Origin: an uncultured Candidatus Saccharibacteria bacterium
GTDB taxonomy: Bacteria; Patescibacteriota; Doudnabacteria; UBA920
DNA: 64,000 bases
NCBI GenBank assembly: GCA_964504715.1
Contig: CAZDEP010000002.1
Coordinates: 21,434 to 85,433 of the forward strand
Direction of reading: 5' to 3'
Under the pieces are notes generated by a model. It was not told the origin of the DNA and did not search any database. It saw nothing but the letters and a program-made list of their open reading frames with translations. The translations under genes were made by a program, and so were the position numbers. Positions 2,798 to 58,935 of the stretch are shown here, one piece after another. The first letter of the stretch is position 1; each line of letters opens with the position of its first letter.

Positions 2798-3748
2798 CTA
2801 CTTTGATAAGGCAAATAATTTTTTAGCATTCTCTGTGGTAATTTTTTCAACTTCCTCCAGTGATAGATTTTTAATTTTTGCCACTCTTTCCGCCACGTGC
2901 TTTACGTAAAGCGGTTCGTTGCGTTTGCCTCGGTGCGGGACGGGAGTCAAATACGGCGAATCGGTTTCTAGAACAATCCTGTCAATGGGAACAGTTTTAA
3001 CCACTTCTTCCATATTTCCGCTTTTATCGAATGTAATTATACCATTTAAACCCACATACGCGCCGCGCTTTATAAATTCCTGAACGATCCCCGGACTACC
3101 GGTAAAGGAATGGATTTCAAACCGCAACCCCTCCCCTTCCCTCCCCTCATAAGGGGAGGGAGTAAGGGAGAGGTGGGCTTCTTGATCTAAAATTTGAAGT
3201 ATATCCTCGTACGCGTCCTGTGAACCCGCGCTCGGCCGGCAATGAATTACCAAAGCTTTATTTGCCTCTTTCGCCAATCTGATTTGCTGGACAAACGCAT
3301 CTTTTTGCAGCTTTTTAATTTCCTGATGACGGTCTTCTTGCCCCGCAAGAAGACCGTCATCTTGCGGCAGGCGGTAGTAGTCAAGCCCGCATTCGCCAAT
3401 GCCTACTACTTTTGGACTGTCCGCAAGTTTCCGATACGCCTCAAAGTCAAATTTTTCTTCACGTGATAAAAAACTTGTCTCTTCTTCATCCAAATGCTGC
3501 GAATAAGTATGGACCGGATGCAGCCCTATTACCGCATAAACGCCACCCCTTCCTCTCTCCTCCCCCCTAGAGGGGGAGGAAGGGTAGGGGGGATATTTTT
3601 CAGCAAGATCAACGGCCTGGCGTGATGTATCGATCTGTGTACCCACGTTTACAACCCACACGCCCGCTTCCAAAGCCCGGCCAATGGTTTGGTCGACGTC
3701 TTCGGCAAAAGCCTTAAAATTCACATGGGCGTGAGTGTCTATAAGCAT
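2798..3748 (-). CDS. TatD-family metal-dependent hydrolase/DNase
   Basis: MLIDTHAHVNF... N-terminus and TatD-like length; contains two in-frame palindromic repeat insertions (PYPSSPSRGEERGRGG; LTPSPYEGREGEG) and an in-frame terminator-like hairpin (DDGLLAGQEDRH). Confidence 0.8.
   Translation of the reverse strand: MLIDTHAHVNFKAFAEDVDQTIGRALEAGVWVVNVGTQIDTSRQAVDLAEKYPPYPSSPSRGEERGRGGVYAVIGLHPVHTYSQHLDEEETSFLSREEKFDFEAYRKLADSPKVVGIGECGLDYYRLPQDDGLLAGQEDRHQEIKKLQKDAFVQQIRLAKEANKALVIHCRPSAGSQDAYEDILQILDQEAHLSLTPSPYEGREGEGLRFEIHSFTGSPGIVQEFIKRGAYVGLNGIITFDKSGNMEEVVKTVPIDRIVLETDSPYLTPVPHRGKRNEPLYVKHVAERVAKIKNLSLEEVEKITTENAKKLFALSK
3125..3176. repeat. Family-1 GC-rich palindromic element (copy A), in-frame in the tatD-like CDS
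   Basis: ctccccttccctcccctcataaggggagggagtaagggagagg. Confidence 0.8.
3326..3360. repeat. Family-3 terminator-type hairpin repeat located inside the tatD-like CDS (in-frame)
   Basis: atgacggtcttcttg-ccccg-caagaagaccgtcat has the same 15-bp arms as the 24452..24488 terminator; it encodes DDGLLAGQEDRH on the minus strand. Confidence 0.75.
3543..3593. repeat. Family-1-like palindromic element (copy B), in-frame in the tatD-like CDS
   Basis: cccttcctctctcctcccccctagagggggaggaagggtagggggg. Confidence 0.7.
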
Positions 3749-3768
3749 GAAGTAAGAAGTAAGAAAAA

Positions 3769-5256
3769 TTAAACGATCCGTGGAAATAAACGAGGAATAT
3801 TATTTTCTTCAAGATTTTCTAAAGCTTCTAAAATCTTTTTTGAGGTAAGAGGCAAAAACGGCTGCAATGTTAAAGCAATTTTGTACAGTTCTAAAAGCAA
3901 ATGTTCTATATCTTTTTTTGCCCCAGCCTCGTCGGTTTTTATTTTTTTAAACGGCTCGGTTTTTTGGATGTATTCGTCGCACTCGCCAACTTTTCGCCAA
4001 ATCCCATCCATCACGGCTTTCAAATTATACCCATTCAAATCCACGCCGCCTTCATTCTTAATTCTTAATTCATAATTCATAATTCCGGCGTTCGCTGCCA
4101 TTTTTAAAACCCTGGAAGTCAAATTCCCTATCCCGTTGGCCAAGTTGGCGTTGTAGCTTTCTATAAACCTCTCCCAGGTGTAGTCGCCGTCTTCAAAGGT
4201 GGAAATTTCTCGTAAAAGATAATACCTTAAAGCGTCTATTGCCTGCTCTTTGCTGAGGCCTTTTTGCTCCAGTTGGTTTAAAATTTGGTAGGGGTCGGCC
4301 ACATTGCCCAAAGACTTGGACATTTTTTGCCCGCCCGAAGTTATAAAACCGTGGATAATAATTTGGCGAGAGTTGGGCAGGCCGGCCGACATAAGCATCG
4401 CCTGCCACATTGCCGACTGCTGGCGCAAATTATCCTTGCCGGCAATTTGAACGGCATTGAGCTGTTCTTTCGTGCCCCAAAATTCCTCAAATTTTGATTT
4501 TTGATTTTTGATTTTTGATTTATCATCAGGCCAGCCTAGGGTTGAAACATAATTTATAAGCGCGTCGAACCACACATACATAACCTGCTTTTCGTCCCCC
4601 GGCACCGGCACGCCCCAGGGCATTTTTTCCTTCAGGCGCGAAATGGAAAAATCCTGCAGTCCCCTTTTGACGAATTCCTTTATTTCATTGAATCTAAAAT
4701 CCGGCACGACAAAATCGGGATATTTTTTGTACAAATCCAGAAGCGGCTGTTGGTATTTGGAAAAACGGAAAAAATAATTTTCTTCCTCAATGGTTTCTAT
4801 TTTCAAATTGGGATGGATGGGGCACTGCCCGTTTTCGTCCAAATCACTCTCGGTTTTTTCCAACTCGCAGCCCACGCAATATTTAACATGGTAATTTTTT
4901 TTGTATATATCCCCATTGTCCGAGCAGAGTTTCCAAAACTCCTGGCATGCCTGTTTGTGCCCGGCGTCGGTGGTACGGATAAAATGGATGTCCGGCAAAA
5001 CCCCCAGCGCCGGCATTAATTTTTTAAACTTTTCCGCGTATTCATCTACATAGCTTTGCGTGTCTTTGCCTTCCTCGGCGGCTTTCCGGTAAATTTTCAG
5101 GCCGTGTTCGTCGGTGCCTGTATTAAAAAACACTTCCTGGCCCAAGAGTTTATGGAAGCGCGCAATGGCGTCAGCCTGCACGATTTCCAATGCAAAACCC
5201 AAATGCGGGTCCGAATTCACATAGGGCAAAGTGGTGGTAATATAAAATTTGTCCAT
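3769..5256 (-). CDS. metG: Methionine--tRNA ligase (short form)
   Basis: TTLPYVNSDPHLGFALE (HIGH-variant), GTDEHGLKI, KMSKSLGN; 495 aa. Carries an in-frame family-2 repeat (GIMNYELRIKNEG) and a 7-mer tandem repeat. Confidence 0.9.
   Translation of the reverse strand: MDKFYITTTLPYVNSDPHLGFALEIVQADAIARFHKLLGQEVFFNTGTDEHGLKIYRKAAEEGKDTQSYVDEYAEKFKKLMPALGVLPDIHFIRTTDAGHKQACQEFWKLCSDNGDIYKKNYHVKYCVGCELEKTESDLDENGQCPIHPNLKIETIEEENYFFRFSKYQQPLLDLYKKYPDFVVPDFRFNEIKEFVKRGLQDFSISRLKEKMPWGVPVPGDEKQVMYVWFDALINYVSTLGWPDDKSKIKNQKSKFEEFWGTKEQLNAVQIAGKDNLRQQSAMWQAMLMSAGLPNSRQIIIHGFITSGGQKMSKSLGNVADPYQILNQLEQKGLSKEQAIDALRYYLLREISTFEDGDYTWERFIESYNANLANGIGNLTSRVLKMAANAGIMNYELRIKNEGGVDLNGYNLKAVMDGIWRKVGECDEYIQKTEPFKKIKTDEAGAKKDIEHLLLELYKIALTLQPFLPLTSKKILEALENLEENNIPRLFPRIV
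4053..4086. repeat. Family-2 AT-rich repeat (aattatgaattaagaatt core), in-frame in metG
   Basis: cattcttaattcttaattcataattcataattcc; the reverse complement encodes GIMNYELRIKNEG. Confidence 0.7.
4489..4521. repeat. Heptanucleotide tandem repeat (gattttt x ~4.5) inside metG
   Basis: aattttgatttttgatttttgatttttgattt, in-frame as DKSKIKNQKSKF. Confidence 0.7.
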
Positions 5257-5414
5257 GGTGTTTTAAAGGCTCACAAATCCCTTTTCCAACCCTACTGCAA
5301 TGCTTTCCGTAGTAGTTGCCTGATTTATCAGGCTATCGTGATAGGATGTTTAAAGGCTCACACTTACAGTGTGAGCCTTTAAATTATAGCGATTTTTAAG
5401 GGTTTAAACAAATT

Positions 5415-6419: not shown

Positions 6420-6444
6420 ATTATTTCACAAAAGCCGCCTAAAA

Positions 6445-7773: not shown

Positions 7774-7785
7774 GATTAAATAAAA

Positions 7786-10491: not shown

Positions 10492-10493
10492 TT

Positions 10494-10545
10494 TCTTCTC
10501 TCCCTCCCCTTCTGAGGGGAGGGATTAAGGGAGAGGTTGCGATTA
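10494..10545. repeat. Family-1 palindromic element (copy C), intergenic
   Basis: ttctctccctccccttctgaggggagggattaagggagaggttgcg fills the 51-bp gap between the M24 peptidase start and the DUF559 gene stop. Confidence 0.8.
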
Positions 10546-13787: not shown

Positions 13788-13880
13788 ACCCGCACTACTT
13801 GTCGCGAAGGACTTTCATGCGGGTTAAAAAAGCTTATATTAATCAATGGGCATCATTGCGCTGCGCAATGATGCCCATTG
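13788..13880 (-). terminator. Two tandem hairpins downstream of pnp (probable rho-independent terminators)
   Basis: 13844..13880 is a perfect 17-bp-stem palindrome (caatgggcatcattgcg-ctg-cgcaatgatgcccattg). 13788..13826 has an aacccgca/tgcgggtt stem followed on the minus strand by a T-run (cttatttttatgctttttt). Confidence 0.5.
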
Positions 13881-17164: not shown

Positions 17165-18157
17165 TCACTCTGGGGCTAAAGCCGCCAAATACTCTATAAA
17201 ATTTTCAAAAACATTATACTCGGTGTATTGTTCAAAACTTTTTAGCCCCGGAAAACGGTTGACCTCCAAAATATAAAACTTGCCGTTTTTTTCCAATATG
17301 TCGACTTTGGCCAGTTCCCTGCCCAATGTGCGAGATGCTTTTTCGGCGAGTTTAATAAGCTTTCCATACTTGTCATTGCGAGCCCTGAATGCATCTGAAG
17401 GGCGTGGTAATCTATTCTCATAGATTGCCTCCACCTTCGCTGAAGCTTCGGCGGACAGGTCGGATGCACTCGCAATGACAGAAAAAGAATCAAAATCCAC
17501 CCTTCCGAATTTCTTATTAAATCTAAATCTTAAAATTACCGGCAATGCCTTATACCCGACCGTAATAATTTTATATTCATAATCCGCCTCTATATATTCC
17601 TGCCACATCCATTCGTTTAAAGGATGCCGGCCAATGATATTTTGGAATTTGAAATTTGAAATTTGGGAATTTATGTGAAAAGTGCCTCTGGCCTTTAGTC
17701 CATATACCCACTTTAATATAAAAGTGCTTAGTGCTTCCGCCTTCGCCAAAGCTTTAGCGGACAAGAAGCGCTTGGTGCCAAGTTTAGAACCATAATTCAT
17801 AATTCTTGATTCATACTTCCAAGTTTTAGGGATAAGGAGGCCGGTTTTTTTTAGATTTTTATAGTCTTCCCATTTACCTTTGCCTAAATTGCCTTGGGTT
17901 ATATTTTCATCTACCACCCTGCCGCCCTGGGCTTGAAAGCTTTGGGCAAGCTTTATAATTTTTTCCAAATAATCCGCTTTATCCTTTAAATAGGGATTCC
18001 GAATATATAAAACATCGCCCCCAAGCGTCGTAAGCTGAAAATTGCAGGCGGCAAGATCGGCAATGTCCATAATTCTTAATTCATAATTCTTAATTCTCGC
18101 TTCCAAAGCGAGCCTGTTTGCCGCGTAAGCGCTTTTTGGGGAGATAAGGTAAATCAT
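17165..18157 (-). CDS. ATP-grasp family ligase (RimK/glutathione-synthetase-like)
   Basis: ATP-grasp-like C-terminal half (…YILEVNRFPGLKSFEQ); contains two in-frame family-2 repeats (ARIKNYELRIMD; YESRIMNYGS). Confidence 0.6.
   Translation of the reverse strand: MIYLISPKSAYAANRLALEARIKNYELRIMDIADLAACNFQLTTLGGDVLYIRNPYLKDKADYLEKIIKLAQSFQAQGGRVVDENITQGNLGKGKWEDYKNLKKTGLLIPKTWKYESRIMNYGSKLGTKRFLSAKALAKAEALSTFILKWVYGLKARGTFHINSQISNFKFQNIIGRHPLNEWMWQEYIEADYEYKIITVGYKALPVILRFRFNKKFGRVDFDSFSVIASASDLSAEASAKVEAIYENRLPRPSDAFRARNDKYGKLIKLAEKASRTLGRELAKVDILEKNGKFYILEVNRFPGLKSFEQYTEYNVFENFIEYLAALAPE
17791..17820. repeat. Family-2 repeat, in-frame in the ATP-grasp gene
   Basis: cataattcataattcttgattcatacttcc; encodes WKYESRIMNYG. 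Confidence 0.6.
18068..18097. repeat. Family-2 repeat, in-frame in the ATP-grasp gene (tandem 14-mer)
   Basis: cataattcttaattcataattcttaattc; shares an identical 19-mer (aattatgaattaagaatta, on the reverse complement) with the metG copy; encodes RIKNYELRIMD. Confidence 0.7.
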
Positions 18158-18187
18158 ACCTATAATACTAGCTTATTTTTGCACAAA

Positions 18188-18251
18188 ATTCGAACGTCGC
18201 ACAATGCACAACCTAAAAAACTCAAATGCCCATTGTCGCCATATATTTTGT
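18188..18251. repeat. 'Solo' inverted-repeat pair of the cacaatgcacaa / tttgtgtatttgtg family (empty MITE-like site)
   Basis: cgcacaatgcacaacc (18188..18203) and ttttgtgtatttgtgg (18236..18251) are inverted relative to each other. The same 13-mer tttgtgtatttgt recurs at 41690..41702 flanking the GxxExxY gene. Confidence 0.4.
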
Positions 18252-18370
18252 GTATTTGTGGATAACCTCTCGTGTCGCATAATGTTGTATTGTGTTAAAA
18301 TAGAATTGCCGCATAAAGCTGAACATAATTTCTTGCAGCATTTAAATGGCGGAAATGTTATCCTAAAACC

Positions 18371-19408
18371 ATGGAAACTACCCCCTCCCCTACAAAGCCT
18401 AATATGAGCGGATTGCGCAAAGCCATTATGGACTTTTTGGAATACTGTGAAATCGGCAAAAACCAGAGCCGCAATACCATTGCGGCTTATTACCGCTACC
18501 TGGATAAATTTGAGCGCTTTGCCCAAGGCATTAAATTAAAAGATGCCAAAGACATTACCTTAGATGTAATTAACCGCTACCGGCTTTATTTAAACCGCCT
18601 GGAAGACGAAGACGGCCGGACACTTAAACTAATTACCCAAAACTACCATTTAATAGCCCTCAGGGCATTCTTAAAATACCTGACCAAGCAGGATGTTAAA
18701 ACCTTGTCCCCGGAAAAAATCGAATTGCCCAAAAACCCCCAACGGCAGGTGGAATTTTTGGAAAACGATGAACTGCAAAGGTTATTCGACGCCACCAACC
18801 AGGAAACGGACGAAACTTCCCGCTTAAGGGATTATGCGATTTTGCAGACTTTGTTTTCCACCGGCCTCCGCGTTTCCGAACTGGCTTCCCTCAAAAAGGA
18901 CAATATAAACCTCGAACGCCACGAATTTACCGTACGCGGCAAAGGCAGCAAGTTAAGGCTGGTGTTTTTAAGCGATACCGCGGCAGAAGCCATAAAAAAA
19001 TACCTGGCTAAACGCCGGGACAATAACAAGGCTTTGTTTATCGCCCATTCCAAAATCGGAGAATCAGTGGAAAAACAAATGGAAAGCCAACAGGCAACCT
19101 CTCCCCTTCCCTCCCCTCATAAGGGGAGGGTGGCCGAAGGCCGGGAGAGGTTGAGATTTTTTGGCCTGACTCCCCGCTCTATCCAACGGATTATTAAAAA
19201 ATATTGCCTGATTGCGGGGATCGTAAAAAAAGTGACCCCGCACACCCTCCGGCATTCCTTTGCGACGGACTTGCTGCAAAATGGCGCGGATATAAGGAGC
19301 GTGCAAACCCTTTTAGGCCACTCCTCCATAACCACAACCCAAATTTATACCCACATAACAAACCAGGGACTAAGGGACATTCATAAGAAATACCACAATA
19401 AGAAGTAA
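18371..19408 (+). CDS. Tyrosine site-specific recombinase (XerC/XerD-like)
   Basis: C-terminal HTLRHSFATDLLQNGADIRSVQTLLGHSSITTTQIYTHI (R..H..R..Y catalytic box); interrupted in-frame by palindromic element E (ATSPLPSPHKGRVAEGRERLRFF). Confidence 0.8.
   Translation: METTPSPTKPNMSGLRKAIMDFLEYCEIGKNQSRNTIAAYYRYLDKFERFAQGIKLKDAKDITLDVINRYRLYLNRLEDEDGRTLKLITQNYHLIALRAFLKYLTKQDVKTLSPEKIELPKNPQRQVEFLENDELQRLFDATNQETDETSRLRDYAILQTLFSTGLRVSELASLKKDNINLERHEFTVRGKGSKLRLVFLSDTAAEAIKKYLAKRRDNNKALFIAHSKIGESVEKQMESQQATSPLPSPHKGRVAEGRERLRFFGLTPRSIQRIIKKYCLIAGIVKKVTPHTLRHSFATDLLQNGADIRSVQTLLGHSSITTTQIYTHITNQGLRDIHKKYHNKK
19095..19153. repeat. Family-1 nested palindromic element (copy E), in-frame in the xerC-like CDS
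   Basis: caacctctccccttccctcccctcataaggggagggtggccgaaggccgggagaggttg. Confidence 0.85.
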
Positions 19409-22970: not shown

Positions 22971-23672
22971 ATGGAAAGAGTCCAAAAGTTCATATCCGGT
23001 TCCGGAGTCGCTTCGAGGCGCAAGGCGGAAGAATTTATAAATTCCGGCCAGGTTTTTATTAATGGCAAAAAAGCACGCTTAGGCGACAAGGTGGACCCAC
23101 AAAAAGATGTAGTTAAAGTTTACGGCAAAATAGTAAAACCTGCGGAAGGGAAACTCTACATAATGCTCAATAAGCCCAAAGGCTGTGTGGTTTCCAAAAA
23201 AGACCCGCAAGGCAGGAAAACCGTTTTTAGCCTTTTGCCGGAAGATTTGCGCGGGCGGGTATGGAACGTCGGGCGTCTGGATTACGGCACCGAAGGCCTT
23301 TTAATTTTAACCAACGACGGCGAACTTACCCAAGAACTGGCCCACCCTAAATTTGAGCACGAAAAAGAATACGAAGTGCTTACCCAAGAAGCGCCTACCG
23401 ACTCCCAGCTGGAAGAGCTTAGACACGGGGTGGAAATCGCGACCGGACCGACCTCGCCCGCGCAAGTCAAAACCCGGGCGGATAAAGTCCTCATAACCAT
23501 TCATGAAGGCAAAAAACGGCAAGTAAGAAGAATGTTTGAAGCCGTTGGTATGACCGTAAAAAACTTAAAGCGCATCCGCATAGGCAAGCTTTTATTACCC
23601 GCCGATTTGCCTGCCGGACAATACCGCATGGTTGATAAGGAAGATATATTAAATATCCAAAAGGATGAGTAA
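22971..23672 (+). CDS. Pseudouridine synthase, RsuA/RluB family
   Basis: S4 domain (ASRRKAEEFINSGQVFING) plus the GRLDYGTEGLLILTNDG catalytic Asp motif. Confidence 0.85.
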   Translation: MERVQKFISGSGVASRRKAEEFINSGQVFINGKKARLGDKVDPQKDVVKVYGKIVKPAEGKLYIMLNKPKGCVVSKKDPQGRKTVFSLLPEDLRGRVWNVGRLDYGTEGLLILTNDGELTQELAHPKFEHEKEYEVLTQEAPTDSQLEELRHGVEIATGPTSPAQVKTRADKVLITIHEGKKRQVRRMFEAVGMTVKNLKRIRIGKLLLPADLPAGQYRMVDKEDILNIQKDE

Positions 23673-24447
23673 GCGAAAAATTAAAATAATAATTTTCCTT
23701 AGTCTTGCGATAATTTTAACGATTATCGCTTTGCTTTTAATTAAACAAAAATACCAAACCACTTTTGTTGATGAACCAAAAATGAACCCGGCAAAAACTA
23801 TGACTTTGCCTTCGGAAACTGCCCCAACATCTTCCCCCGCTACCGGCTACGAGCTACCTACTACCCTCCTTCTCCCCGTCCCCTTCACCCCCCAGGCGCC
23901 CACGGCCAACTGGGACAAGCTCCATAACGAGGCCTGCGAAGAAGCCAGCGCTATTATGGCCGCTTTTTATTTCTCCCCTTCTAAAATAGGAACGGATAAA
24001 GGGATGGTGTTAGATCCAAAAACCGTGGAATCCGAAATCCAAAAACTTACCGAGTGGCAGCAGCAAAATTTTGGCTATCATTTAAGCATAAACACGGCCG
24101 AAACCGAAAAAATGGCACAGGAAGTCTACGGCCTTAAAACCCAAATTATAAACGATTTTACTGAAAATGACATAAAAAAAGCCCTCACCGAGGGCAAACT
24201 GGTATTATTCCCCGCAAACGGCCGGCTTTTATACAATCCGAATTTTAAAAGCCCGGGGCCAAAATACCATATGCTGGTAATAAAAGGCTATACCCAAGAA
24301 AATTTTATAACCAATGATCCCGGAACAAAAAAAGGCCTTAACTACCCCTATAGTTTTGAAACTCTTTACAGCGCCAACGGTAACTACGACCATACCACCG
24401 AAGAAGTAGATACAACACGTAAGAATGTAATAGTAATCTGGAAATAG
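23665..24447 (+). CDS. membrane-anchored papain-like cysteine peptidase (C39-like / Peptidase_C39_2-type)
   Basis: N-terminal TM; PQAPTANWDKLHNEACEEASAIMAAFYF (Gln...Cys nucleophile context) and a later His in HMLVIKGY. Confidence 0.5.
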   Translation: MSKRKIKIIIFLSLAIILTIIALLLIKQKYQTTFVDEPKMNPAKTMTLPSETAPTSSPATGYELPTTLLLPVPFTPQAPTANWDKLHNEACEEASAIMAAFYFSPSKIGTDKGMVLDPKTVESEIQKLTEWQQQNFGYHLSINTAETEKMAQEVYGLKTQIINDFTENDIKKALTEGKLVLFPANGRLLYNPNFKSPGPKYHMLVIKGYTQENFITNDPGTKKGLNYPYSFETLYSANGNYDHTTEEVDTTRKNVIVIWK

Positions 24448-24451
24448 CAAT

Positions 24452-24488
24452 ATGACGGTCTTCTTGCAACAGCCAAGAAGACCGTCAT
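24452..24488. terminator. Perfect 15-bp-stem hairpin terminator (family-3 repeat copy) between convergent genes
   Basis: atgacggtcttcttg-caacagc-caagaagaccgtcat followed by atttttttgtg. Confidence 0.65.
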
Positions 24489-24501
24489 ATTTTTTTGTGT
24501 C

Positions 24502-31159: not shown

Positions 31160-31559
31160 GCGTCACAATGGCCTACGGGCTTTCATTTTGGCGCAAGCGC
31201 TAAAACTCTCGCCCTAAGACATTGTTCCTTTTCCCCAATTTTCATAGGCTGAAAATTGGGGGCCCCAGTTTCGGAGCTATTTTAACAAAAAAACTCTCGC
31301 ACAGAAGATGTGTAGAGTTTATCCAAACATATGCTGTGTCATATGTTTCCTTGCCGCAATTGTTTGCGACTTAGTAATTATAGGACATTTTCCCCTACTA
31401 GTCAACAAAAAGCCAAATTATTGACAAAATTTAATCAATTTTATTAAAAGTATCGGTAAAACGATATATTATGTGCTAGATGATACTTGATTGTCTAAAC
31501 GATATATTATTGTCTATCCGATACTTTTTAAAGCTTAAAAATAAGCTTTTTTTCTAATT

Positions 31560-31600
31560 TAAAAACTACCTTTGCTATGTGCAAAGATAGCTTAAAAGGT
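31560..31600 (-). terminator. Hairpin plus T-run downstream of the giant gene
   Basis: Minus-strand ctatctttgcacatagcaaaggtag followed by ttttt. Confidence 0.4.
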
Positions 31601-31616
31601 TTATTTACTCTTATTT

Positions 31617-34600: not shown

Positions 34601-37600
34601 TGTTGTCTACCCTCAAACACTGCATACCGCCGCCGGCTAAGGTAGGCAACAAAAGGGCGTTTATGGAAGTCTTGCCTGTGGCAGTATTTACATAGAATGT
34701 GGATGTTGATGATGTAGCAACATTTAAGTTTCCATACACATCCAACTTTGCTATTGGTGATGATGTGCCAATACCAACGTTGTCGGAAGCATTGACGACC
34801 AACCCTGAACCGGAATTCCCTGTCCGATTTAAAGTCATTAAGCCATAGGTATTGTCGTAAAACAAATATCCGCGAAGATTAGACCCCTGCGTAAACTGAA
34901 TTTGCGGCAGAGAAGTTGCGCCGCCGTCGATTCTCAGAGTAGTACTACCGCTGCTTGCCACATGCAATGCCGTTTGCGGACTCGTGGTGCCTATGCCAAC
35001 GTTGCCGTAATTTGTAATCCTCATTTTTTCGTCCGCAGCCGCTACTTGTTGGTACGCGCTACCGCCATTGGTTATGGTCAAAAACACTATGTCTCCGGTA
35101 CCGCCCGAACCGTTTGTCGCCTGGACTGCGCCAATAAACTGCTTTTGTGAAGTATCATTGCCTGAATACAGCCCTAAACGCATACCCACAAAATTCCCGG
35201 GCTGACCTGCAATATTATTTAACGTAAGTCCGTTTGTGACACTGTTTGAAGAGCCGTCCGCGTAAGTTATATATAGTTTGGAATTCGGCGCCAGGCCATT
35301 CCCCGTACCCACCGCTCCTATGCCAATATTTCCCGAAGGGAAAACTGTTAGCACATGCGCTCCGGTGGATGAAGAAATGGTAAACATATTACTGGACCCG
35401 CTGCCCTGAACATGCAAACTTGCAAGCGGTGTGCCCGTGCCAATACCCACGTTGCCGCTGGTACCCAAAACCGTTAAACGCGTGGTCGTGCCGTTGTTAG
35501 CCAAAATCGAAAGCGTTGAAGTCGCGCCTTGGCCTGCGCCTTCTTGGATGTTTAATGTTGTTACACCCGTAGCAGCGGTGCCGTCGTACACCAGCAACGT
35601 ACCGTTACCTATGGTTTGCGCCGCGCCCTGCCTGCCTATTACCACGGAATTCGGGGAAGACACGCTGCCATTTATGCCTATCATTTCCACTGTGCCACCG
35701 GAATTACCAATAAACAAATTGCTGGAATTTGCCCGCGCGAACAAATGCAAGCCCTGGGTTGTAAACTTTAATTCCGCACCGTTGCCAGCTTGGGATTTTA
35801 TATTTACCCCAACGTCGTTTGTGCTTTGTACGGTTAAGCCAGCAAAAGCCGAAGTGGTTACAATATGCAGCGTATCGCCCGGCGTGGAAGTGCCAATACC
35901 TACCCTGCTAGTGCCCGTATTTGCAAACAAAACAGATGTTGATGATGTAGCAACATTTAAGTTTCCATACACATCCAACTTAGCCAAAGGCGACGTGGTC
36001 CCAATGCCAACGTTGCCGAGTAAATATGAATTGCCAGTCCCTACACTTATTGTCCCGCCCGTAACCAAGTTGCCTGAACTGTCTACAACAAGTTGTGTGG
36101 ACGAACCGGCAGAGGTCGTAAGCGTTCCGGATGTCCCACCATAAGTTGACCAAGATGATGTGTATGGCGGAATTTGTCCTGCAATGATTCCGCTATACCA
36201 TTCAACACTAAGATTGCCCAAAACAGGAGTAATCCTCCAAGAAGGGTCACCATTATTCCACAAATACCAATTGCCACCGACCAATTTGTAATAATTGTAA
36301 TTATTGTATCTACCCGCATAAGTATAAGTCCCGGCCGGATTACCGCTTCCTGAAGTACAACCTGGACAACTAACAATAACCGGCAAAACCGAATTGGTCC
36401 CAATTGTAGCCGTCAACCCATTTATATCTCCAGCAGAACTTACCGTGAACTGATTATTATTCCCAACTGTTAACAATTGACTCGGACTCGTCGTCCCAAT
36501 ACCAACGTTGCCATCGTTTTTAATATACATCTGGGTCGCCGCTCCAGCATTTGTAGAGAAAAGAATATTACCACTGGCGCTCCTAATAACTAAGTCATCT
36601 TGAACAGACCCCAAAGATAAGTTATTCGCGCCGCCGGCAAGGCCTACCAAACCTTTATCCACGCCGGCATGCTTGAGGCCAAAGAACCCATTTGTAGAAG
36701 AATAATCAATGTAAGCGGTCGCCTGTGTACCGTAAATATGCAACAATCCGCTCGGCGCCGTGGTGCCAATGCCGATGTTGCCGGTATTACCTTGAATGGT
36801 CAGGCGCTCCTGTTCAGCACTGCCGGTCCAGGTTTTAAAACGCAAATACCAGTTGGTGCCGTCATACACATTGTAAATACCTCCCAGGTTCGCGCCGGTG
36901 GCGCTATATCTAAATCTTACCGCCTGCCCCGTTCCCGAGCTGGCCCCCCCATCGTTGTCCAAAATTAACCCTGTAACATTCCCATTACTTGCCTTATAAA
37001 CATGGAGAGCATCAAGTGGACTTGTCGTCCCAATTCCGACGTTGCCGGCAGAAGTAACGCGTAAATAGGAAGCGCCTGATGAAGACGCTATATCTAAAAT
37101 ATCTACCGTGGATGAAGCAACTACTGACAACGAAACTGACGGACTTGAAGTATTTATGCCAACCTTATTATAGGTATTACTTAAAAAGAGGGCTGGTGTG
37201 AATGCGGCGGTGTTTGAACCTTGGCCAATAGACAATCCTCCAACCGCATTGCCATTGTTACGAAGTTCTCCCAAATACCATTCGGGAATAGAACCGAGTC
37301 CAAATTGTATTTGTGCGGCACGGGTGTTAGAGGAACGGCTAATTAACATACCGGCGCCCCCCGCCGAACCTATGTTGTTAATAAAAACCGGAATTGTATC
37401 GGTGGTGGTACTGGCAGTCACATTAAACAAAGCGATTGGACTCGTAGTCCCAATGCCGACGTTACTACCTTTTAAAGTCATAACTGAAGTTCCACCTATT
37501 TGGAAATCCGTATACATAGTGCCCGCGCTTACGCCGCCGCCGCTGTTGGCCACATTTATTATTAAAGGTTTCTGGTTAGAAGTTGCGGAATTAGCCAGAA

Positions 37601-39179
37601 GCGTGGTGCCGTTTATATTTTCGGTAATGGAAAAATATTGGTTTACGTTAGTGCTGTTGTCCCTGGTGAACCTCGCTACTTCGTTGCTATTTCCCACAAC
37701 ATGCAAAACCGAAACGGGACCACTCGTCCCAATACCAACATTGCCCGAACTGTAATAAATGCTTCCGTTCGTGGAAGTGGACCAGGTGGCGCCGGCTACG
37801 GAAATATTTGCCCAGGAAAGCTGGCCTGAGCCGTTGGTAACTAACACTTGGTTAGCCGAGCCATCCCCTCCCGGCCAAGCGTAAGCTATGCCGCCTAAAG
37901 TGGTCGTGGCAAAAGAAACCGTGCCGGTAAAGTTAGCGGCACCGGAAACATTTATTTGGTCGCTGACATTCAAAACATTTATTTGTGTCTTATCCGAAGA
38001 AAAATAAGTAAAAGAACCTATGGTGCCGTTGCCCGTGCCCCCGGGGTTGCTCGTATTCACATAGCCCAAACTCCATCCCCCGCCCTGAAGCGAAGAGCTC
38101 CCCGACGCCCCCTGCGCCCCCGTTTCGCCCCTTTCCCCTTTTTCACCCTTTTCCCCCTTGAATTTCCCTTCTGCCAAATATTGCTTTAAGCGCTCGTCCA
38201 CCAATTGACTTAAGGTGTTCGTGTCCACCGGGGCGATTGTTTCTCCCAACACCCTCCCGGAAATTTTGAGGGTTTTTTTCGGCAATTCCTTTAAGGAAAT
38301 TTTGGGAATGTAAATAGTCTCAACGATTTCCGGAGCTTGGAATTCGCTTCCGCCGAAGAACGGGGATTCCGACCAACGCGGCTTTTGCATTTGCAAAGCC
38401 AGCGCGTAAATTTTGCCTGCAGTTTTTTGGGCCTCGTCTAGGGCTGCGCGCTTAATTTGCAAAGGCGCGGATTTTATAACCTCGCCAAAGCCTTGTTTAA
38501 TTTCGGCCCAGCCCAAACGCGAAGGAAGGTTTTTTACTTTTTCCCACGCAAAAAGCCTTAGCTGCCTGCCGGCATTTGGTGCGGAAATTTTAGGGTCATT
38601 TGCGAAGGAAGGTTTTTTAAAAATAAAGGTATAAAATATTTTTTCTCCCGCGGCTTTCCCTTCTTTGCCAAAAAGGCTGCCGGAATAATCAGCGCGGGGT
38701 GCAACAATTGTCTTACCCAAAACTTTTGGCTGCCGGTTTTCCGCAACAAGCCTGGATGGCCCGTTTTGGTCGTGCGAAGCCAAAACCAGATTGGCTTTGC
38801 TTATTGCCGCGGTTTCATTTTTTGTTGACTGCTTATACCACAGGGTGGAAAAAACTATGCCGAAAATCAAAACCAAATGCGCGGCGGTTATGGCAAACCA
38901 CATGGGCCAGCGCGAGCTAAGTATACCGTAAGTTTTTCGCTTGCTTACCGAATCTACATTTTTTTTAGGCAAAGCTCCGCAGGCGCGGCACGATTCCATT
39001 GCCCTTAGCAGGTGCGCAAGACCTTCCACTTGGGGCAAATGGCTTTTAGGTATTGGCCGCGCAGGAATCATCTCCCGCAAAGAAACCGGTGGCACCCTGA
39101 CAGGCACAATAAACTTCAGTCCGGGCGGCATGTGGCGGCCGGGCCTGCCATATTTCAAAATCAAAAGCAGCCTTTTCAT
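31617..39179 (-). CDS. Giant (2520-aa) membrane-anchored fibre protein with collagen-like triplets, tail-fibre-like repeats and a Peptidase_S74 intramolecular chaperone domain
   Basis: Single uninterrupted ORF. N-terminal TM (WPMWFAITAAHLVLIFGIVFSTLWY). GEKGEKGERGETGAQGASG collagen-like stretch (nt ~38100..38160). YAWPGGDGSANQVLVTNGSGQLSW phage-fibre-like motif. About 19 repeats with core (S/T)GNVGIGTTSPxxxLHV. ASDRNLKENF...WNYKREDASITHLGPTAQDFYASFGL...VALVGIKALDEKINSLQ (S74 chaperone, nt ~32290..32560), then about 225 aa with a P/E/T-rich tail. The true start codon is uncertain (MPPGL, MESCRAC and MWFAI are alternatives). Confidence 0.9.
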   Translation of the reverse strand: MKRLLLILKYGRPGRHMPPGLKFIVPVRVPPVSLREMIPARPIPKSHLPQVEGLAHLLRAMESCRACGALPKKNVDSVSKRKTYGILSSRWPMWFAITAAHLVLIFGIVFSTLWYKQSTKNETAAISKANLVLASHDQNGPSRLVAENRQPKVLGKTIVAPRADYSGSLFGKEGKAAGEKIFYTFIFKKPSFANDPKISAPNAGRQLRLFAWEKVKNLPSRLGWAEIKQGFGEVIKSAPLQIKRAALDEAQKTAGKIYALALQMQKPRWSESPFFGGSEFQAPEIVETIYIPKISLKELPKKTLKISGRVLGETIAPVDTNTLSQLVDERLKQYLAEGKFKGEKGEKGERGETGAQGASGSSSLQGGGWSLGYVNTSNPGGTGNGTIGSFTYFSSDKTQINVLNVSDQINVSGAANFTGTVSFATTTLGGIAYAWPGGDGSANQVLVTNGSGQLSWANISVAGATWSTSTNGSIYYSSGNVGIGTSGPVSVLHVVGNSNEVARFTRDNSTNVNQYFSITENINGTTLLANSATSNQKPLIINVANSGGGVSAGTMYTDFQIGGTSVMTLKGSNVGIGTTSPIALFNVTASTTTDTIPVFINNIGSAGGAGMLISRSSNTRAAQIQFGLGSIPEWYLGELRNNGNAVGGLSIGQGSNTAAFTPALFLSNTYNKVGINTSSPSVSLSVVASSTVDILDIASSSGASYLRVTSAGNVGIGTTSPLDALHVYKASNGNVTGLILDNDGGASSGTGQAVRFRYSATGANLGGIYNVYDGTNWYLRFKTWTGSAEQERLTIQGNTGNIGIGTTAPSGLLHIYGTQATAYIDYSSTNGFFGLKHAGVDKGLVGLAGGANNLSLGSVQDDLVIRSASGNILFSTNAGAATQMYIKNDGNVGIGTTSPSQLLTVGNNNQFTVSSAGDINGLTATIGTNSVLPVIVSCPGCTSGSGNPAGTYTYAGRYNNYNYYKLVGGNWYLWNNGDPSWRITPVLGNLSVEWYSGIIAGQIPPYTSSWSTYGGTSGTLTTSAGSSTQLVVDSSGNLVTGGTISVGTGNSYLLGNVGIGTTSPLAKLDVYGNLNVATSSTSVLFANTGTSRVGIGTSTPGDTLHIVTTSAFAGLTVQSTNDVGVNIKSQAGNGAELKFTTQGLHLFARANSSNLFIGNSGGTVEMIGINGSVSSPNSVVIGRQGAAQTIGNGTLLVYDGTAATGVTTLNIQEGAGQGATSTLSILANNGTTTRLTVLGTSGNVGIGTGTPLASLHVQGSGSSNMFTISSSTGAHVLTVFPSGNIGIGAVGTGNGLAPNSKLYITYADGSSNSVTNGLTLNNIAGQPGNFVGMRLGLYSGNDTSQKQFIGAVQATNGSGGTGDIVFLTITNGGSAYQQVAAADEKMRITNYGNVGIGTTSPQTALHVASSGSTTLRIDGGATSLPQIQFTQGSNLRGYLFYDNTYGLMTLNRTGNSGSGLVVNASDNVGIGTSSPIAKLDVYGNLNVATSSTSTFYVNTATGKTSINALLLPTLAGGGMQCLRVDNSGNVITAGIDCGASGGSLAGGVKGYVATWASSTGLTVGTLIDNGTVSGVNATSSTVSFLVQGTGTLNPFQVNSSTGTSLLTVTPSGNVGIGTTAPNYLQENYLSANGWGMVVTRASGASVGLYVDTTGGYLQTTGPKTLGLGANGGSAITILNGNNKIGFNNSSPTYTVDIKGSGTIDPFNVASSSGTSLMVITNQGNVGIGTTDPAKILDIQAPTADTQIKSTTSTNYVISRWINGNNQLQIGLDRSTGGIFGTGSLPYAAAINVWQNYPLQFGTNSVMRMTIEGGGNVGIGTTSPSALLHVGGGSVRGTFIVEGSTADIPYIQLKDGKAGGKTWTMYSGLNNAGDFALYDNSAAATPFTVKQSTGNVGIGTTSPATLLHMEGASAQLRIATNNDSSPRMSFYSGSGNVSDRNWMIADGLTTRGALEFKVGSASGVAPATDVMSILSNGNVGIGTTGPSHKLHVAGTGSTDSYYGLARFSPSAAGGESEIGFFDDVAGTDTNDAWVIGQGGWSNTGDFIIGNENNGAGGNVRLLIEKSGNVGIGTTSPATTLDVNGTTTMRGALLFGTDNTWDIGASGANRPRNLYLSNALSVSSITAAATVGFGGGRGGAGAGIANGADASVYATAGKSLELWADATAGRGIEILTGTGNVGVGTTTPTLGPLTMASGAYVTAGGTWTNASDRNLKENFASVTPASILEKIVNLPIAKWNYKREDASITHLGPTAQDFYASFGLGGSDTAISTIDPSGVALVGIKALDEKINSLQQTVSNLQNTGSDVDPQAPIVFKTQVYLSQDSVGQAKILAGSKRVKVTFTKPYEYQPIVTATPLDFVSGAYRIASTTAEGFTIELKYVQDEDVTFNFHAFASPEAKLTVSDGQVLGITLTLPFTESGTNQPAEVTPSAGEGVGQEESAPSQPAEAALTPATEASVVPDVQTEPAPESEIVVPESQTTPEEITPEPSMPPAEQPTNDIAPQDPVPSGESGLGAASVGVE
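34702..35991. repeat. Intragenic near-identical direct repeats inside the giant gene (for example a 47-bp copy at 34702..34748 and 35934..35991, plus ~17 copies of the ggactcgtcgtcccaatgccaacgttgcc motif)
   Basis: Seen directly: gatgttgatgatgtagcaacatttaagtttccatacacatccaact occurs twice; the GNVGIGTT-encoding 30-mer recurs with 80-100% identity through 32970..37750. Confidence 0.8.
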
Positions 39180-53840: not shown

Positions 53841-53847
53841 CATGCAC

Positions 53848-55134: not shown

Positions 55135-56979
55135 ATGGAAAGAAACAATTTAAGAAACATAGCCATTATCGCGCACGTCGACCACGGCAAAACCACGCTT
55201 GTCGATGCCATGCTTAAACAGACCCACACGGTCAAGGAAAACCCTGACACTAAGGATTTAATAATGGACAGCATGGACCTGGAGCGCGAACGCGGCATTA
55301 CCATTCGCGCCAAAAACGCGAGCTTGGTTTACAATGGCACCAAAATAAACATTGTGGATACCCCGGGCCACGCCGACTTTGGCGGCGAAGTGGAAAGAAC
55401 CTTGCGCATGGCCGATGGCGTTTTATTGTTAGTTGATGCCAAAGAAGGCCCCATGCCCCAAACCAAGTTCGTGCTTAAAAAAGCTTTGGAGCTTGGCCTT
55501 AAGGCTATTGTGGTCGTAAACAAAGTGGACAAACCCGACGCCCAGGTTGACCATACGGTTAATAAAACATTTGACTTGTTTGTGCACTTAAACGCAAACC
55601 ACGAACAGTTGGATTTTCCTATCATTTACGCCTCGGGCGTGAAAGGCTTGGCCGACGAAAAATTGGAAAGCGTAATGGAAAAAATTACGAGCGGCGCCAA
55701 CCCGGACGTCTCTCCCCTCTTTGAGGCCATTATAAAGCACATCCCCGCCCCTACAGTTTCCCTGGACGAATCTTTTGCCATGCTGGTCTTGGCCCTGGTT
55801 AACGACAATTACAAAGGCAAAATGGGCATTGGCAAAATAGTTTCAGGCTCTGTGAAAAAAGCCCAAAATATTGTCCGCATTAAAACCGACGGCCAGCGCG
55901 ACTCAGGCAAAGTTACCGCCCTCCAAATGTACGAAGGCCTAAAGCCGGTGGACGCCGAAGAGGCGGAGGCCGGTGACATTGTCGCGATAGCCGGTTTTGA
56001 CGACGTAAGCATTGGCGAAACTCTAACCGATCCTATAAAGCCCATCCACTTGGAACCCGTACAAATAGAGCCGCCGACCATTAAAATGACGTTTGGCGTA
56101 AACACTTCCCCGTTTGCCGGCAAAGAAGGCAAATTCGTTACCTCCCGAAACTTGCGCGACCGCTTGTACAAGGAATTGGAAACCAACGTGGCGTTAAAAG
56201 TAGAACCCAGCGAAGAAGGTGCGGAAAGCTTTTTGGTTTCCGGCCGCGGCGAATTGCATTTGGGTGTTTTGATTGAGACCATGCGCCGCGAAGGTTTTGA
56301 ATTGCAAGTCAGCCAGCCGCAGGTTATTTATCATTCGGCCGATGACGGCACAAAAATGGAACCTTACGAGGTAATCACCATAGACGTGCCCAGCGAATAC
56401 CAAGGCTCGGTTATAGAAGAGCTTGGCCGCCGCGGAGGCGTAATGCAGCACATGGACAGTTCGGGCAACAACGCCGAACTCCATGCCGAATACCTTATTC
56501 CTACCCGCGGGCTTATTGGCTTAAAAAATATCCTGCTCACCCGCACTCGCGGAACCATAATAATGAACAACCTTTTCGACTCGTACCGACCGGTCCACGA
56601 ACTCGATACCCATTCCAACGACCACGGCTCGCTTATAACTTCTGAATCGGGTGTTTCCAATGCGTACGGTTTAAATAATGCCCAGGAACGCGGAATTTTG
56701 TTTATTGGCCCGGCGGTGGATGTTTATGAAGGCATGGTAGTGGGTAAAAATTCCTTAGATACCGACCTTGAACTGAATGTCTGCAAAACCAAAAAACTTA
56801 CCAACATGCGCTCAAGCGGCGCGGACGATGCCATAATCCTTACTCCCCCGCACCCGGTGGAACTGGACTTTGCTTTGGAATACATTGGCTCGGATGAACT
56901 GGTGGAAGTCACGCCCAAATCCATCCGCATAAGAAAAAAAATCCTTTCTGCTACAGAACGCAAACGCGCGAACAGATAA
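55135..56979 (+). CDS. typA: Translational GTPase TypA/BipA
   Basis: NIAIIAHVDHGKTTLVD...DTPGHADFGGEVER...NKVDKP G-domain; 614 aa. Confidence 0.9.
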   Translation: MERNNLRNIAIIAHVDHGKTTLVDAMLKQTHTVKENPDTKDLIMDSMDLERERGITIRAKNASLVYNGTKINIVDTPGHADFGGEVERTLRMADGVLLLVDAKEGPMPQTKFVLKKALELGLKAIVVVNKVDKPDAQVDHTVNKTFDLFVHLNANHEQLDFPIIYASGVKGLADEKLESVMEKITSGANPDVSPLFEAIIKHIPAPTVSLDESFAMLVLALVNDNYKGKMGIGKIVSGSVKKAQNIVRIKTDGQRDSGKVTALQMYEGLKPVDAEEAEAGDIVAIAGFDDVSIGETLTDPIKPIHLEPVQIEPPTIKMTFGVNTSPFAGKEGKFVTSRNLRDRLYKELETNVALKVEPSEEGAESFLVSGRGELHLGVLIETMRREGFELQVSQPQVIYHSADDGTKMEPYEVITIDVPSEYQGSVIEELGRRGGVMQHMDSSGNNAELHAEYLIPTRGLIGLKNILLTRTRGTIIMNNLFDSYRPVHELDTHSNDHGSLITSESGVSNAYGLNNAQERGILFIGPAVDVYEGMVVGKNSLDTDLELNVCKTKKLTNMRSSGADDAIILTPPHPVELDFALEYIGSDELVEVTPKSIRIRKKILSATERKRANR

Positions 56980-56986
56980 ATACTAA

Positions 56987-57019
56987 AGACGGTCTTCTTG
57001 CCAGGCAAGAAGACCGTCT
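56987..57019 (+). terminator. Rho-independent terminator after typA (family-3 hairpin copy)
   Basis: agacggtcttcttg-ccagg-caagaagaccgtct followed by tttaaaaac. Confidence 0.6.
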
Positions 57020-57161
57020 TTTAAAAACAAGTAAAAAGTAACGCACTAAATTTTAAAGGCTCAACCGGTTGAGCCTTTAAAAAGGCCTAAAATAGGCCTT
57101 AATTTAAGGCCTGGGAATTAAGGAAATTACTAACAAAATCGCTTAGAGATCAAAAAGGACT

Positions 57162-57536
57162 CTACTTTCTAAGCTCCAATTTATATTCCTGAAGCCAAGC
57201 TTGGACAAAATTTAGCATCTTCCTGCCAAATCCCTTAAGTCTCAATAAATCCGACCCCGATTTTTGAATCAAATCGTTTATTGTAAAAATACCTGCATTA
57301 TTCAAAATATTTATAAAGCGGGCGCTGTGCCTTTTATCCTGCATTTTTATGACGCTTACCGGGAGCTGGAAAACCTCCGGGTTGGGAAGACTTTCTTTTT
57401 GAATATCCCGCCCAACACTTTGCCGGCCCAAATAGAAACCTTCTTCCCTGATCGCCGAATCTCGTTTTTGATCTTCGGTCATAGAACTTTCTGCCCTGGA
57501 AATCTCCTCCTCGGAAGGCTTGTAATTTTCAAACAT
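57162..57536 (-). CDS. small protein with RNA-polymerase-alpha-CTD-like helix-hairpin-helix domain
   Basis: FINILNNAGIFTINDLIQKSGSDLLRLKGFGRKMLNFVQAWLQE. Confidence 0.4.
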   Translation of the reverse strand: MFENYKPSEEEISRAESSMTEDQKRDSAIREEGFYLGRQSVGRDIQKESLPNPEVFQLPVSVIKMQDKRHSARFINILNNAGIFTINDLIQKSGSDLLRLKGFGRKMLNFVQAWLQEYKLELRK

Positions 57537-57548
57537 ACTTTTTAAAGC

Positions 57549-57809
57549 TTAGAAAAAATAATAAATTAATAATAGTTGCTGCAAAAGAAGCAACATCATG
57601 CTTAAAATAAAAACGAATTTGCGGGTTTTGTGGCGGAAGGCAAGCATGCCCAAAAGCACGCCCAAAGAAGCAAAAAACACGCCAATAAAAAAGAACGAAA
57701 CTTCGCTATACCTTTCCTTGCCGGCAATGCTTTTGTTTTTATCCATACCCACATAAACAAAAGCAAATAGGTTTAAAGCCGCCAGCGCAAACAAAATCCA
57801 AGTTTGCAT
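57549..57809 (-). CDS. DUF1294-family small membrane protein
   Basis: GMDKNKSIAGKERYSEVSFFFIGVFFASLGVLLGMLAFRHKTRKFVF matches the DKxxA...RHKTRK pattern. Confidence 0.5.
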   Translation of the reverse strand: MQTWILFALAALNLFAFVYVGMDKNKSIAGKERYSEVSFFFIGVFFASLGVLLGMLAFRHKTRKFVFILSMMLLLLQQLLLIYYFF

Positions 57810-57857
57810 ATTTTTTCTTATAGGCTTATTCGGGCGAATAAGCCTATGCGTAAAGGG

Positions 57858-58832
57858 TTAAATAATTTGGGCTAAAATTAAATCCAAAAGCATCCGCGGG
57901 GGCGTTTGGGAAGTTTTAAGATCTTCGTCCATTGCGCCCAATTTGGTTAAAGTCTCCAAAACTTTTTTCGGCTGGAATCTTTCCGCAATTTTTTTCATTA
58001 TGTAAAGCCTGCCGCTCTTCCAGGCGGTTTGACGCAAAATTTCTTCGTCGCCAATGTTGCGGCTTAAAAAATCCTGCACCATGGCGACATTCCTGAACTG
58101 TTCGCTTAAAAGCGCGTTGAGCTGGATAACGCCGCCTTTTTCGTCGGCGGCGTTTTGGTCTTTTAAAAATTTATTTATAAGCGAAAAAGCTTCCAGTTTG
58201 CGCTTGTCCGCAATGGCGTTGGTAATTTGGAACGCGTCCACTTCCACATTTTCCGCCACCAATTCCCTGACATCCTCAGGGCCAATTTCCCGGCCCAAAG
58301 CAAAGGCCATAAGTTTTTTTATTTCACTGTCCGCGCGCCACAGGCTGTATACTTCCTCGGCGGCAATAAGTTTGCCGCCCACTTTGGTTTCTTTGGCCTG
58401 GTCCCGCCCAAGACGCATGGCCAACTCCCCTGCCGCAAGCACACTTATTTGCCCGCCCAGATCTTTTGCCCGTTCTATTATCCATTTGTCCAAATCTTTG
58501 GCGTGGGGCAGCAAAAACTCCCGCACGGTTATTTCTGTGTTTGCGAGCAAATCTTTATTTTCTTTTTTCCTTTTGTCCAGGCTTATTAGGCTGATGATTA
58601 TTAAATTAGGAGATTTAATAATAGGTTCGAGCCTGTCGTTAATTTCCGGCATAATGCCTTCAAACACAAACATACCGGGCTTTAAAAACAAATCGGTTTC
58701 GGCCAGCGTCGATACCGGCGGCAAAACATCCTCTTTACCAAACACGCTCAAACTCCCCCCTCTTTGTTTGGAGAGCAGGCTAATATATTGGCTTTTGGAA
58801 TAATCGTCTGGCCCTAAAAGAATATGCAGCAT
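57858..58832 (-). CDS. holA: DNA polymerase III delta subunit-like (HolA)
   Basis: MLHILLGPDDYSKSQYISLL N-terminus, clamp-loader delta-like size and helical C-terminal region. Confidence 0.5.
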   Translation of the reverse strand: MLHILLGPDDYSKSQYISLLSKQRGGSLSVFGKEDVLPPVSTLAETDLFLKPGMFVFEGIMPEINDRLEPIIKSPNLIIISLISLDKRKKENKDLLANTEITVREFLLPHAKDLDKWIIERAKDLGGQISVLAAGELAMRLGRDQAKETKVGGKLIAAEEVYSLWRADSEIKKLMAFALGREIGPEDVRELVAENVEVDAFQITNAIADKRKLEAFSLINKFLKDQNAADEKGGVIQLNALLSEQFRNVAMVQDFLSRNIGDEEILRQTAWKSGRLYIMKKIAERFQPKKVLETLTKLGAMDEDLKTSQTPPRMLLDLILAQII

Positions 58833-58910
58833 ATTTGCATTTTAACATTTAAGCATTTAAACATCAAAACGCAAATTTCACCCACAGATTTGATTGAACG
58901 ATTTTTGCCC

Positions 58911-58935
58911 CCGCAAGATGACGGTCTTCTTGCGC
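58911..58935. repeat. Partial or rearranged family-3 copy (intergenic)
   Basis: ccgcaaga-tgacggtcttcttg-cg. Confidence 0.5.

Follow-up and report, generated by a model that had tools for sequence, protein, structure and literature searches.

We analysed a 64-kb stretch of contig CAZDEP010000002.1 (hereafter the window; 45% G+C), in which the 13-mer GACGGTCTTCTTG forms three perfect hairpins, one inside the tatD gene, one between convergent genes and one just 3' of typA. These hairpins are best read as copies of a lineage-specific repeat of the repetitive extragenic palindromic (REP) type in a Patescibacteria genome, probably of Doudnabacteria, and we place the probability of this reading at about 0.8. 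The proteins closest to the TatD and TypA of the window belong to Patescibacteria, several of them labelled Candidatus Doudnabacteria; exact look-ups of the two window proteins themselves returned no record. In the proposed explanation, the family would be mobilised in trans, on single-stranded DNA, by an HUH/Y1 REP-associated tyrosine transposase (RAYT), and only copies keeping the sequence recognised by the enzyme would be able to propagate. Such a limit on propagation would explain why the arms are identical between loci and species while the loops drift. Mobility was considered the best explanation, and a close relative carries the same hairpin at both ends of a Y1 transposase gene.

Relatives were found through a look-up of orthologues of the hairpin-adjoining genes in public assemblies. 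One of them, L132 (20 kb; aquatic metagenome, ENA ERZ964708), is syntenic with the window over 13.9-31.6 kb, with an amino-acid identity of 69% between the orthologues of a C39-like peptidase. It was noted that L132 carries a gene for a transposase of 219 aa (17725-18384, minus strand), which matches the Pfam family Y1_Tnp ('Transposase IS200 like'; E 1.2e-11; 45.2 bits, cut-off 23) and whose sole NCBIfam match is 'REP-associated tyrosine transposase' (NF047646; E 6.5e-14). The protein contains both the HUH motif (NHFHLL) and a catalytic-tyrosine motif (AYIHQNP). The gene is bordered by hairpins at 17678-17715 and 18395-18431, the one 10 nt past the stop codon and the other 11 nt ahead of the start codon, and their arms, GATGACGGTCTTCTTGC, are exactly those of the window, with different loops. 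Both hairpins have CCTT on the outward side and TTGCG toward the gene, and the two copies are therefore mutually inverted. This hairpin-transposase-hairpin layout is the arrangement that defines a RAYT with its REP dimers (PMC3733652, PMC5581495).

The left end of the L132 cassette was found to be the same in an independent assembly (L133). In the window, the corresponding position (31560-31620) is an empty site, and in L132 the cassette is located there, with a conserved terminator-like hairpin on one side and a giant open reading frame (ORF) on the other, which adjoins it by its 3' end. The arms of the L132 hairpins also recur within tatD in L121 and after typA in L215, both contigs from the same samples, as well as seven times in the window. 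A transposase of the L132 type is probably the enzyme that moves these repeats, and the genome of the window probably has, or once had, such a gene.

An enzyme that matches an IS200-like Pfam family, and that falls under the cut-off of the RAYT equivalog model, could also belong to an autonomous insertion sequence of the IS200/IS605 type, in which case the dispersed hairpins would be miniature elements derived from its ends. The left- and right-end hairpins of IS200/IS605 elements stand on the same strand, however, whereas those flanking the L132 gene are inverted relative to each other. The only NCBIfam model matched by this 219-aa protein is the RAYT one. Among the repeat-bearing lineages (window, L121, L130, L132 and L215; about 121 kb), nine hairpin loci were counted versus one transposase gene, which is the single such gene in all sequence examined. 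An IS200-type element is made less likely by the inversion of the flanking hairpins and by the large excess of hairpins over transposase genes, and we consider this origin improbable.

Several observations weigh against the assignment of the hairpins to a REP family moved by a RAYT. The L132 transposase reaches 52 bits on NF047646, under the equivalog cut-off of 80 bits, and PDB sequence searches with it returned no relative even at E 10. The association with a transposase is seen in a close relative and not in the window's own genome, as no transposase homologue was detected in the 64-kb window by tblastn or by a clade profile compared with all six frames. Within the protein collection, clustering at 90% identity groups the transposase with ENA members only. 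L121, L132 and L215 derive from the same samples, their origin from one genome is unproven, and their divergence from the window is mosaic. The classical REP tag is an unpaired terminal GTAG or CGTC (PMC3733652). No GTAG was found next to any copy, and CGTC is present but base-paired in the stem. Finally, the family comprises five loci only in the 64 kb examined.

Two features adjoining the empty transposase site were recorded as side observations. A 2520-aa ORF (31617-39179, minus strand) ends beside this site with a C-terminus unlike that of the relative. In addition, a non-coding stretch of about 270 nt (31285-31555, plus strand) is roughly 90% identical to L132 at about 17270-17560 and is more conserved than several of the neighbouring genes. 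It includes a promoter-like TTGACA-17-TATTAA, followed by a putative transcript of about 100 nt that contains two CGATATATTAT repeats and is closed by GTATCGG...CCGATAC, and then by an AAGCTT hairpin with T7. As RNA, the stretch folds at -28.7 kcal/mol (z -4.9), without an Rfam match, and it is a candidate small RNA.

We then characterised the repeat within the window. GACGGTCTTCTTG is the most frequent 13-mer of the window, with seven exact occurrences. At up to two mismatches it was encountered 10 times, compared to 0.83 expected, and none of 100 shuffles got to 10. Comparison of all copies identified the basic unit as a 21-nt quasi-palindrome, GCAAGATGACGGTCTTCTTGC, with three asymmetric positions and a consensus of 21-23 nt, (C)GCAAGA-W-GAC-S-GTC-W-TCTTGC(G). 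At up to five mismatches, this unit is represented by eight words at five loci of the window (0.07 expected), namely the three hairpins, one single unit and one degenerate unit (Table 1). Four of the five loci are intergenic, two of them between convergent genes and two between same-strand genes. An Rfam search of the window returned five tRNAs only. The initial annotation had described four hairpin sites with arms of 15 or 14 bp; all four are real, with slightly longer arms of 17-18 nt, but its total was incomplete, as the degenerate unit at 2773-2793 had been missed.

The long hairpins were found to be inverted dimers, composed of one full or near-full unit and a partial inverted copy, with loops that vary in both length and sequence. 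The full-length dimers are asymmetric, with CCT(T) flanking one end and TTGCG(G/C) the opposite end. Folded as RNA, the hairpins have energies between -27.5 and -30.8 kcal/mol (z-scores between -5.5 and -8.2). Outside the window, dimers were found in L121, L130, L132 and L215. Exact single units occur at 4981 and 5415 of L130 as well as once in the window, and the unit at 5006 of L130 is a variant. In L130, single or tandem units lie in the region that matches the 58911-58935 intergene of the window, and one unit adjoins a tRNA gene. As a side observation, a 98-aa ORF (58824-59120, plus strand) contains LPPQDDGLLA only through read-through of the single unit of the window; this ORF is almost certainly spurious, though it could be mis-annotated as a gene.

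A palindrome that is strictly conserved between loci and species might also be the binding site of a dimeric regulator or of another DNA-binding protein (operator or parS-like). The half-sites of the dimers are spaced by 1, 3 or 7 nt, however, a variation that a dimer with a fixed footprint would not tolerate, and the copies are located at gene 3' ends and in a coding sequence, not at promoters. We give a protein-binding site next to no weight.

Table 1. Copies of the putative REP-type repeat in the window and the genes that adjoin them.
Feature	Position in window	Strand	Details
Degenerate single unit, TCTTGATGAAGGTCTTCTTGC	2773-2793		arm match 16/17; in the 38-nt spacer from the tatD stop codon to the start of the next gene
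tatD-family hydrolase gene, 316 aa	2798-3748	-	hosts the in-frame dimer and two more palindrome-derived inserts
Full-length dimer (REPIN-like) in the tatD coding sequence	3321-3367; hairpin 3325-3361		17-nt arms 3325-3341 and 3345-3361, loop CCC; outer flank CCT, inner extension TTGCGG; minus (coding) strand reads CCGCAAGATGACGGTCTTCTTGCGGGGCAAGAAGACCGTCATCAGG, encoding PQDDGLLAGQEDRHQ
C39-like peptidase gene	23665-24447	+	convergent with ORF 24502-25515 (-)
Dimer in the spacer between the C39-like gene and ORF 24502-25515	24447-24491; hairpin 24449-24491		18-nt arms, 7-nt loop CAACAGC; left part is a full 21-nt unit with one mismatch, GCAATATGACGGTCTTCTTGC
typA	55135-56979	+	convergent with gene 57162-57536 (-)
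Dimer after typA	56985-57021		6 nt 3' of the typA stop codon; 18-nt arms, 1-nt loop; arms AAAGACGGTCTTCTTGC(C)
holA-like gene	57858-58832	-	
Single unit	58911-58935		exact GCAAGATGACGGTCTTCTTGC at 58913-58933, bordered by C and G; upstream of the holA-like gene

Comparison with relatives showed that the arms are held constant while the loops and nearby neutral sites drift, and that the occupancy of sites turns over. The typA dimer of the window has counterparts placed identically relative to the stop codon in L215, whose TypA is 98.7% identical, and in L130 (94%). Its stems are identical at 34 of 34 positions among the three (17-nt arms), whereas the loops read CAG, AAG and TTT, respectively, and the typA four-fold sites are identical to those of the window at 83% (L215) and 60% (L130). 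L129 (TypA 91%) and L131 (88%) carry unrelated hairpins after typA. At the convergent site between the C39-like gene and ORF337, the window has a dimer, and in L132 the same spacer is filled by a hairpin from another family, GGCATCATTGC. The repeat word was not found in L126, L127, L129 or L131. The combination of constant arms, drifting loops and occupancy turnover fits a replicator whose copies must keep a sequence recognised by a transposase; the data also fit the retention of some copies by selection on the hairpin. The proposal in the initial annotation that palindromes move between intergenic and coding locations is supported, in that one family occupies both kinds of site, flanks a transposase gene in a relative and differs in site occupancy between relatives.

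The range of the repeat was also assessed. The paired pattern GACGGTCTTCTTG-N(0-20)-CAAGAAGACCGTC had 0 matches in IMG/VR and 0 in JGI metagenomes; the family therefore appears to be narrow, without sign of phage carriage. A scan of a genome collection with the 14-mer GACGGTCTTCTTGC was uninformative, with single chance matches in unrelated phyla among the matches listed.

Identical arms with spacers that vary in length and sequence, together with the existence of single copies, gave the first lead in this work, a DNA uptake sequence. In such a case a competence receptor would favour the word, and inverted pairs would double as terminators. DNA uptake sequences (DUS) and uptake signal sequences (USS) occur as inverted pairs at terminators and within coding regions (PMC2817400, PMC3630211). 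Type IV pilus genes are also nearby (60621-63980, minus strand; in relatives, the genes clustered downstream of the holA-like one carry the annotations PilM, PilC and PilB). The idea was dropped on the grounds of density, range and the transposase find. DUS and USS have a density of roughly 1 per kb, compared to about 1 word per 8 kb here (eight words in 64 kb, six of them in dimers). The unit is itself palindromic, with 17-23 nt conserved, and the word is absent not only from L126 and L127 but also from L129 and L131, at about 88-91% TypA identity. The 13+13 pattern lacks a match in JGI metagenomes or IMG/VR, and the transposase link accounts for the family without invoking uptake. An uptake sequence is thus regarded as extremely unlikely.

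We next considered the function of individual copies. Both intergenic dimers are situated between convergent genes, 2-6 nt past a stop codon, at places where relatives have ordinary terminator hairpins. A T7 run follows the dimer at 24449-24491 on the plus strand, in agreement with the T-run reported earlier for this hairpin, and a weak run, T4, follows the dimer at 56985-57021 on the plus strand; the latter was flagged as terminator-like on the minus strand. These T-runs are local context and not part of the repeat, and the single units are without a terminator-like U-tract. The tatD copy has a U-tract on neither strand, and its coding strand continues CAGGAAAUUAAAAAGC. It is therefore not a canonical terminator, and termination inside tatD, as expected from the strong intrinsic terminator that had been proposed within this ORF, is unsupported. 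The earlier label 'terminator-type' thus fits the position of some copies but not the identity of the family, which would be that of a REP-type element. REPs are commonly proposed to act as terminator or 3'-end-stabilising hairpins, and the intergenic dimers probably now serve as terminators or as mRNA 3'-end-stabilising hairpins of typA and the C39-like gene.

The location of two of the three dimers between convergent genes, one with T7, and the unrelated terminator hairpins held by relatives at the same places would also be expected of ordinary look-alike intrinsic terminators that arose at their present sites without transposition, gene conversion having homogenised their stems. Such a history leaves unexplained the tatD copy without a U-tract and the single units. 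It likewise does not account for the asymmetric flanks common to the tatD copy and the transposase-flanking copies, or for the transposase association, and we judge it very unlikely.

Among the copies of the putative REP family, the one in tatD is the only copy of the window within a coding sequence. The tatD product matches Pfam PF01026 (E 2.5e-70), and the dimer at 3325-3361 was verified to be in frame with the gene, encoding the peptide DDGLLAGQEDRH. The 12-aa insert had been put forward as unique to this TatD. This was not borne out: among 26 aligned orthologues it was absent in 25 and present in one, P0002 (contigs L121-L125), which is 80% identical to the window TatD by BLASTP and 83% identical over aligned residues. 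The tatD genes of the window and L121 share a 46-nt identical run centred on the hairpin, compared to 79% identity over the whole gene (P about 0.003 under independent sites). Orthologues free of the insert read CCG CAG AAT GAT GAC AGA GCG, with empty sites in L126 and L127, and the net insertion is +24 nt (8 aa), in frame. At the empty site, the initial 6 nt of the arm (GATGAC) are already present, and the exact boundaries of the insertion are not resolvable. The window tatD copy matches the hairpins flanking the L132 transposase over about 45 nt, asymmetric flanks included.

An AlphaFold model of TatD (mean pLDDT 83.5, pTM 0.86) places the REP insert in coil at the start of helix 137-161, in a block with pLDDT of 63-81. 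The two other palindrome-derived inserts are in loops, where pLDDT is about 58-65 and in places under 50, and all three inserts map to lower-confidence segments of the model. By our own reading of its letters, the repeat element is stop-free in four of the six frames, and an in-frame passenger is therefore not improbable. The tatD copy is probably a tolerated passenger of this kind.

With respect to the same gene, two further palindromic modules were observed in frame in tatD, at 3129-3161 and 3558-3580. The module CCCTCCCCT..AGGGGAGGG encodes PSPYEGREGEG and is absent from L121, and the module TCCTCCCCC-CTAGA-GGGGGAGGA is common to the window and L121. The CCCTCCCCT..AGGGGAGGG family was also encountered at 10501 and, within ORFs, at 19109 and 46771. 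TatD orthologues range in length from 278 to 361 aa, owing to such loop inserts.

Beyond these close relatives, at least 522 relatives of the L132 transposase were found in JGI metagenomes, and 80 of these loci (L135-L214; 35-65% identity) were kept. Among the 51 loci whose upstream and downstream flanks each measured at least 160 nt, the two flanks shared an exact inverted match of at least 11 nt in 25 cases, compared to 4 of 102 controls. Most of the shared matches are long perfect palindromes of lineage-specific sequence, for example ACAAAGGGCATCTTTG/CAAAGATGCCCTTTGT on both transposase flanks in L147, and several of these palindromes recur elsewhere in their own short locus. At least 90% of 33 aligned clade members retain the HUH histidines and the tyrosine of the Y-I-H-x-N-P motif. 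It was also observed that the Y1 transposases of the JGI clade are about 200-220 aa in length and that many of the flanking palindromes start with TACAA(A/G)G. Only the lineage of the window was placed in Patescibacteria, and the JGI clade members carry no taxon assignment. A tentative and rather doubtful extension is that the clade of at least 522 relatives constitutes an undescribed RAYT group, in which compact dimers would be retained across species as co-opted terminators. On this view, in-frame insertion into protein loops, by these dimers and by the other palindromic families of tatD, could regularly supply the lineage-specific protein inserts that typify these bacteria.

Additional hairpin families were recorded alongside the GACGGTCTTCTTG repeat. 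A second family of perfect hairpins, with the core GGGCATCATTGC, occurs at 13844-13880 of the window and at 285-321 and 10799-10837 of L132. Downstream of the PNPase gene, a single compensated pair distinguishes its orthologous copies, both arms being changed (G:C to A:T), and a related hairpin in L132 is located where the window has a GACGGTCTTCTTG dimer. In sequence, this family is similar to palindromes flanking other transposases of the clade, and these hairpins may be a second REP family. A third family, with arms TTTAAAGGCTCA and variable centres, was found at 5349-5383 and 57051-57082 of the window and at 11921-11944 of L215. The word TGAGCCTTTAAA occurs five times in the window, and one copy, 30 nt 3' of the typA dimer, is conserved in a relative. 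With regard to divergence, the four-fold-site identity between the window and its relatives (L215, L132 and L121) ranged from 0.44 (cation ATPase) to 0.83 (typA) for genes a few kb apart. This strongly mosaic divergence points to recombination or to the co-occurrence of more than one related population in these samples.

REP/RAYT systems are seen as long-lived, vertically inherited intragenomic replicators and have been best studied in large proteobacterial genomes. We found no paper in the searchable literature that pairs REP or RAYT with Patescibacteria. The presence of such a system in these ultra-small, streamlined bacteria would indicate that replicators persist even where non-coding DNA is scarce. 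In the family described here, stems are identical across species, copies are located where terminators are needed, and one copy is in frame within a conserved enzyme. For annotation, the family accounts for the recurrent perfect hairpins in these metagenome-assembled genomes and for short odd inserts between orthologous proteins, and it is cautioned that such repeats can break assemblies. No new mechanism is revealed, and the element appears to be of a known kind.

The family was finally compared with known systems. Similar to Rho-independent terminators, the hairpins at 24449-24491 and 56985-57021 are strong, GC-containing and located just past stop codons, the first with T7; unlike them, the repeat itself carries no U-tract, and neither the tatD copy nor the single units resemble terminators. 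The DUS of Neisseria and the USS of Pasteurellaceae resemble the family in their identical short words, inverted pairs and variable spacers at terminator positions, with some intragenic copies. In contrast to these, the repeat here is sparser, its unit is itself palindromic, its range is narrow and it is linked to a transposase. The tatD copy recalls the Rickettsia palindromic elements (RPE) and other intragenic REPs, as it is an in-frame palindrome in a conserved housekeeping gene, lengthens the protein by a short peptide where this is tolerated and has been kept in a relative. RPE-1 type elements are about 100-150 bp in length, compared to a net insert of 24 nt (8 aa) here, and RPE are not known to have a dedicated transposase, whereas a candidate transposase was identified for the present family.

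The closest comparison is with the REP/REPIN-RAYT systems ('REPtrons') of E. coli, Pseudomonas, Stenotrophomonas and numerous other bacteria. The family differs from these in its Patescibacteria host, in the lack of an unpaired GTAG tag, in the divergence of its transposase (52 bits compared to the 80-bit cut-off, with no PDB relative by sequence) and in its very compact, perfect dimers of 37-46 nt. The REPINs of Pseudomonas are about 100 nt. Similar to the REPtrons, the quasi-palindromic unit occurs singly or as inverted dimers that form a longer hairpin, the copies are mostly extragenic and near gene 3' ends, inverted repeats flank a Y1/HUH gene, and the repeats outnumber the transposase. 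REPs described previously are likewise found mostly between convergent or unidirectional ORFs and as head-to-head dimers, with the RAYT gene flanked by REPs (PMC3733652, PMC5581495), and occasional intragenic copies, including copies in frame, are also known (PMC3733652).

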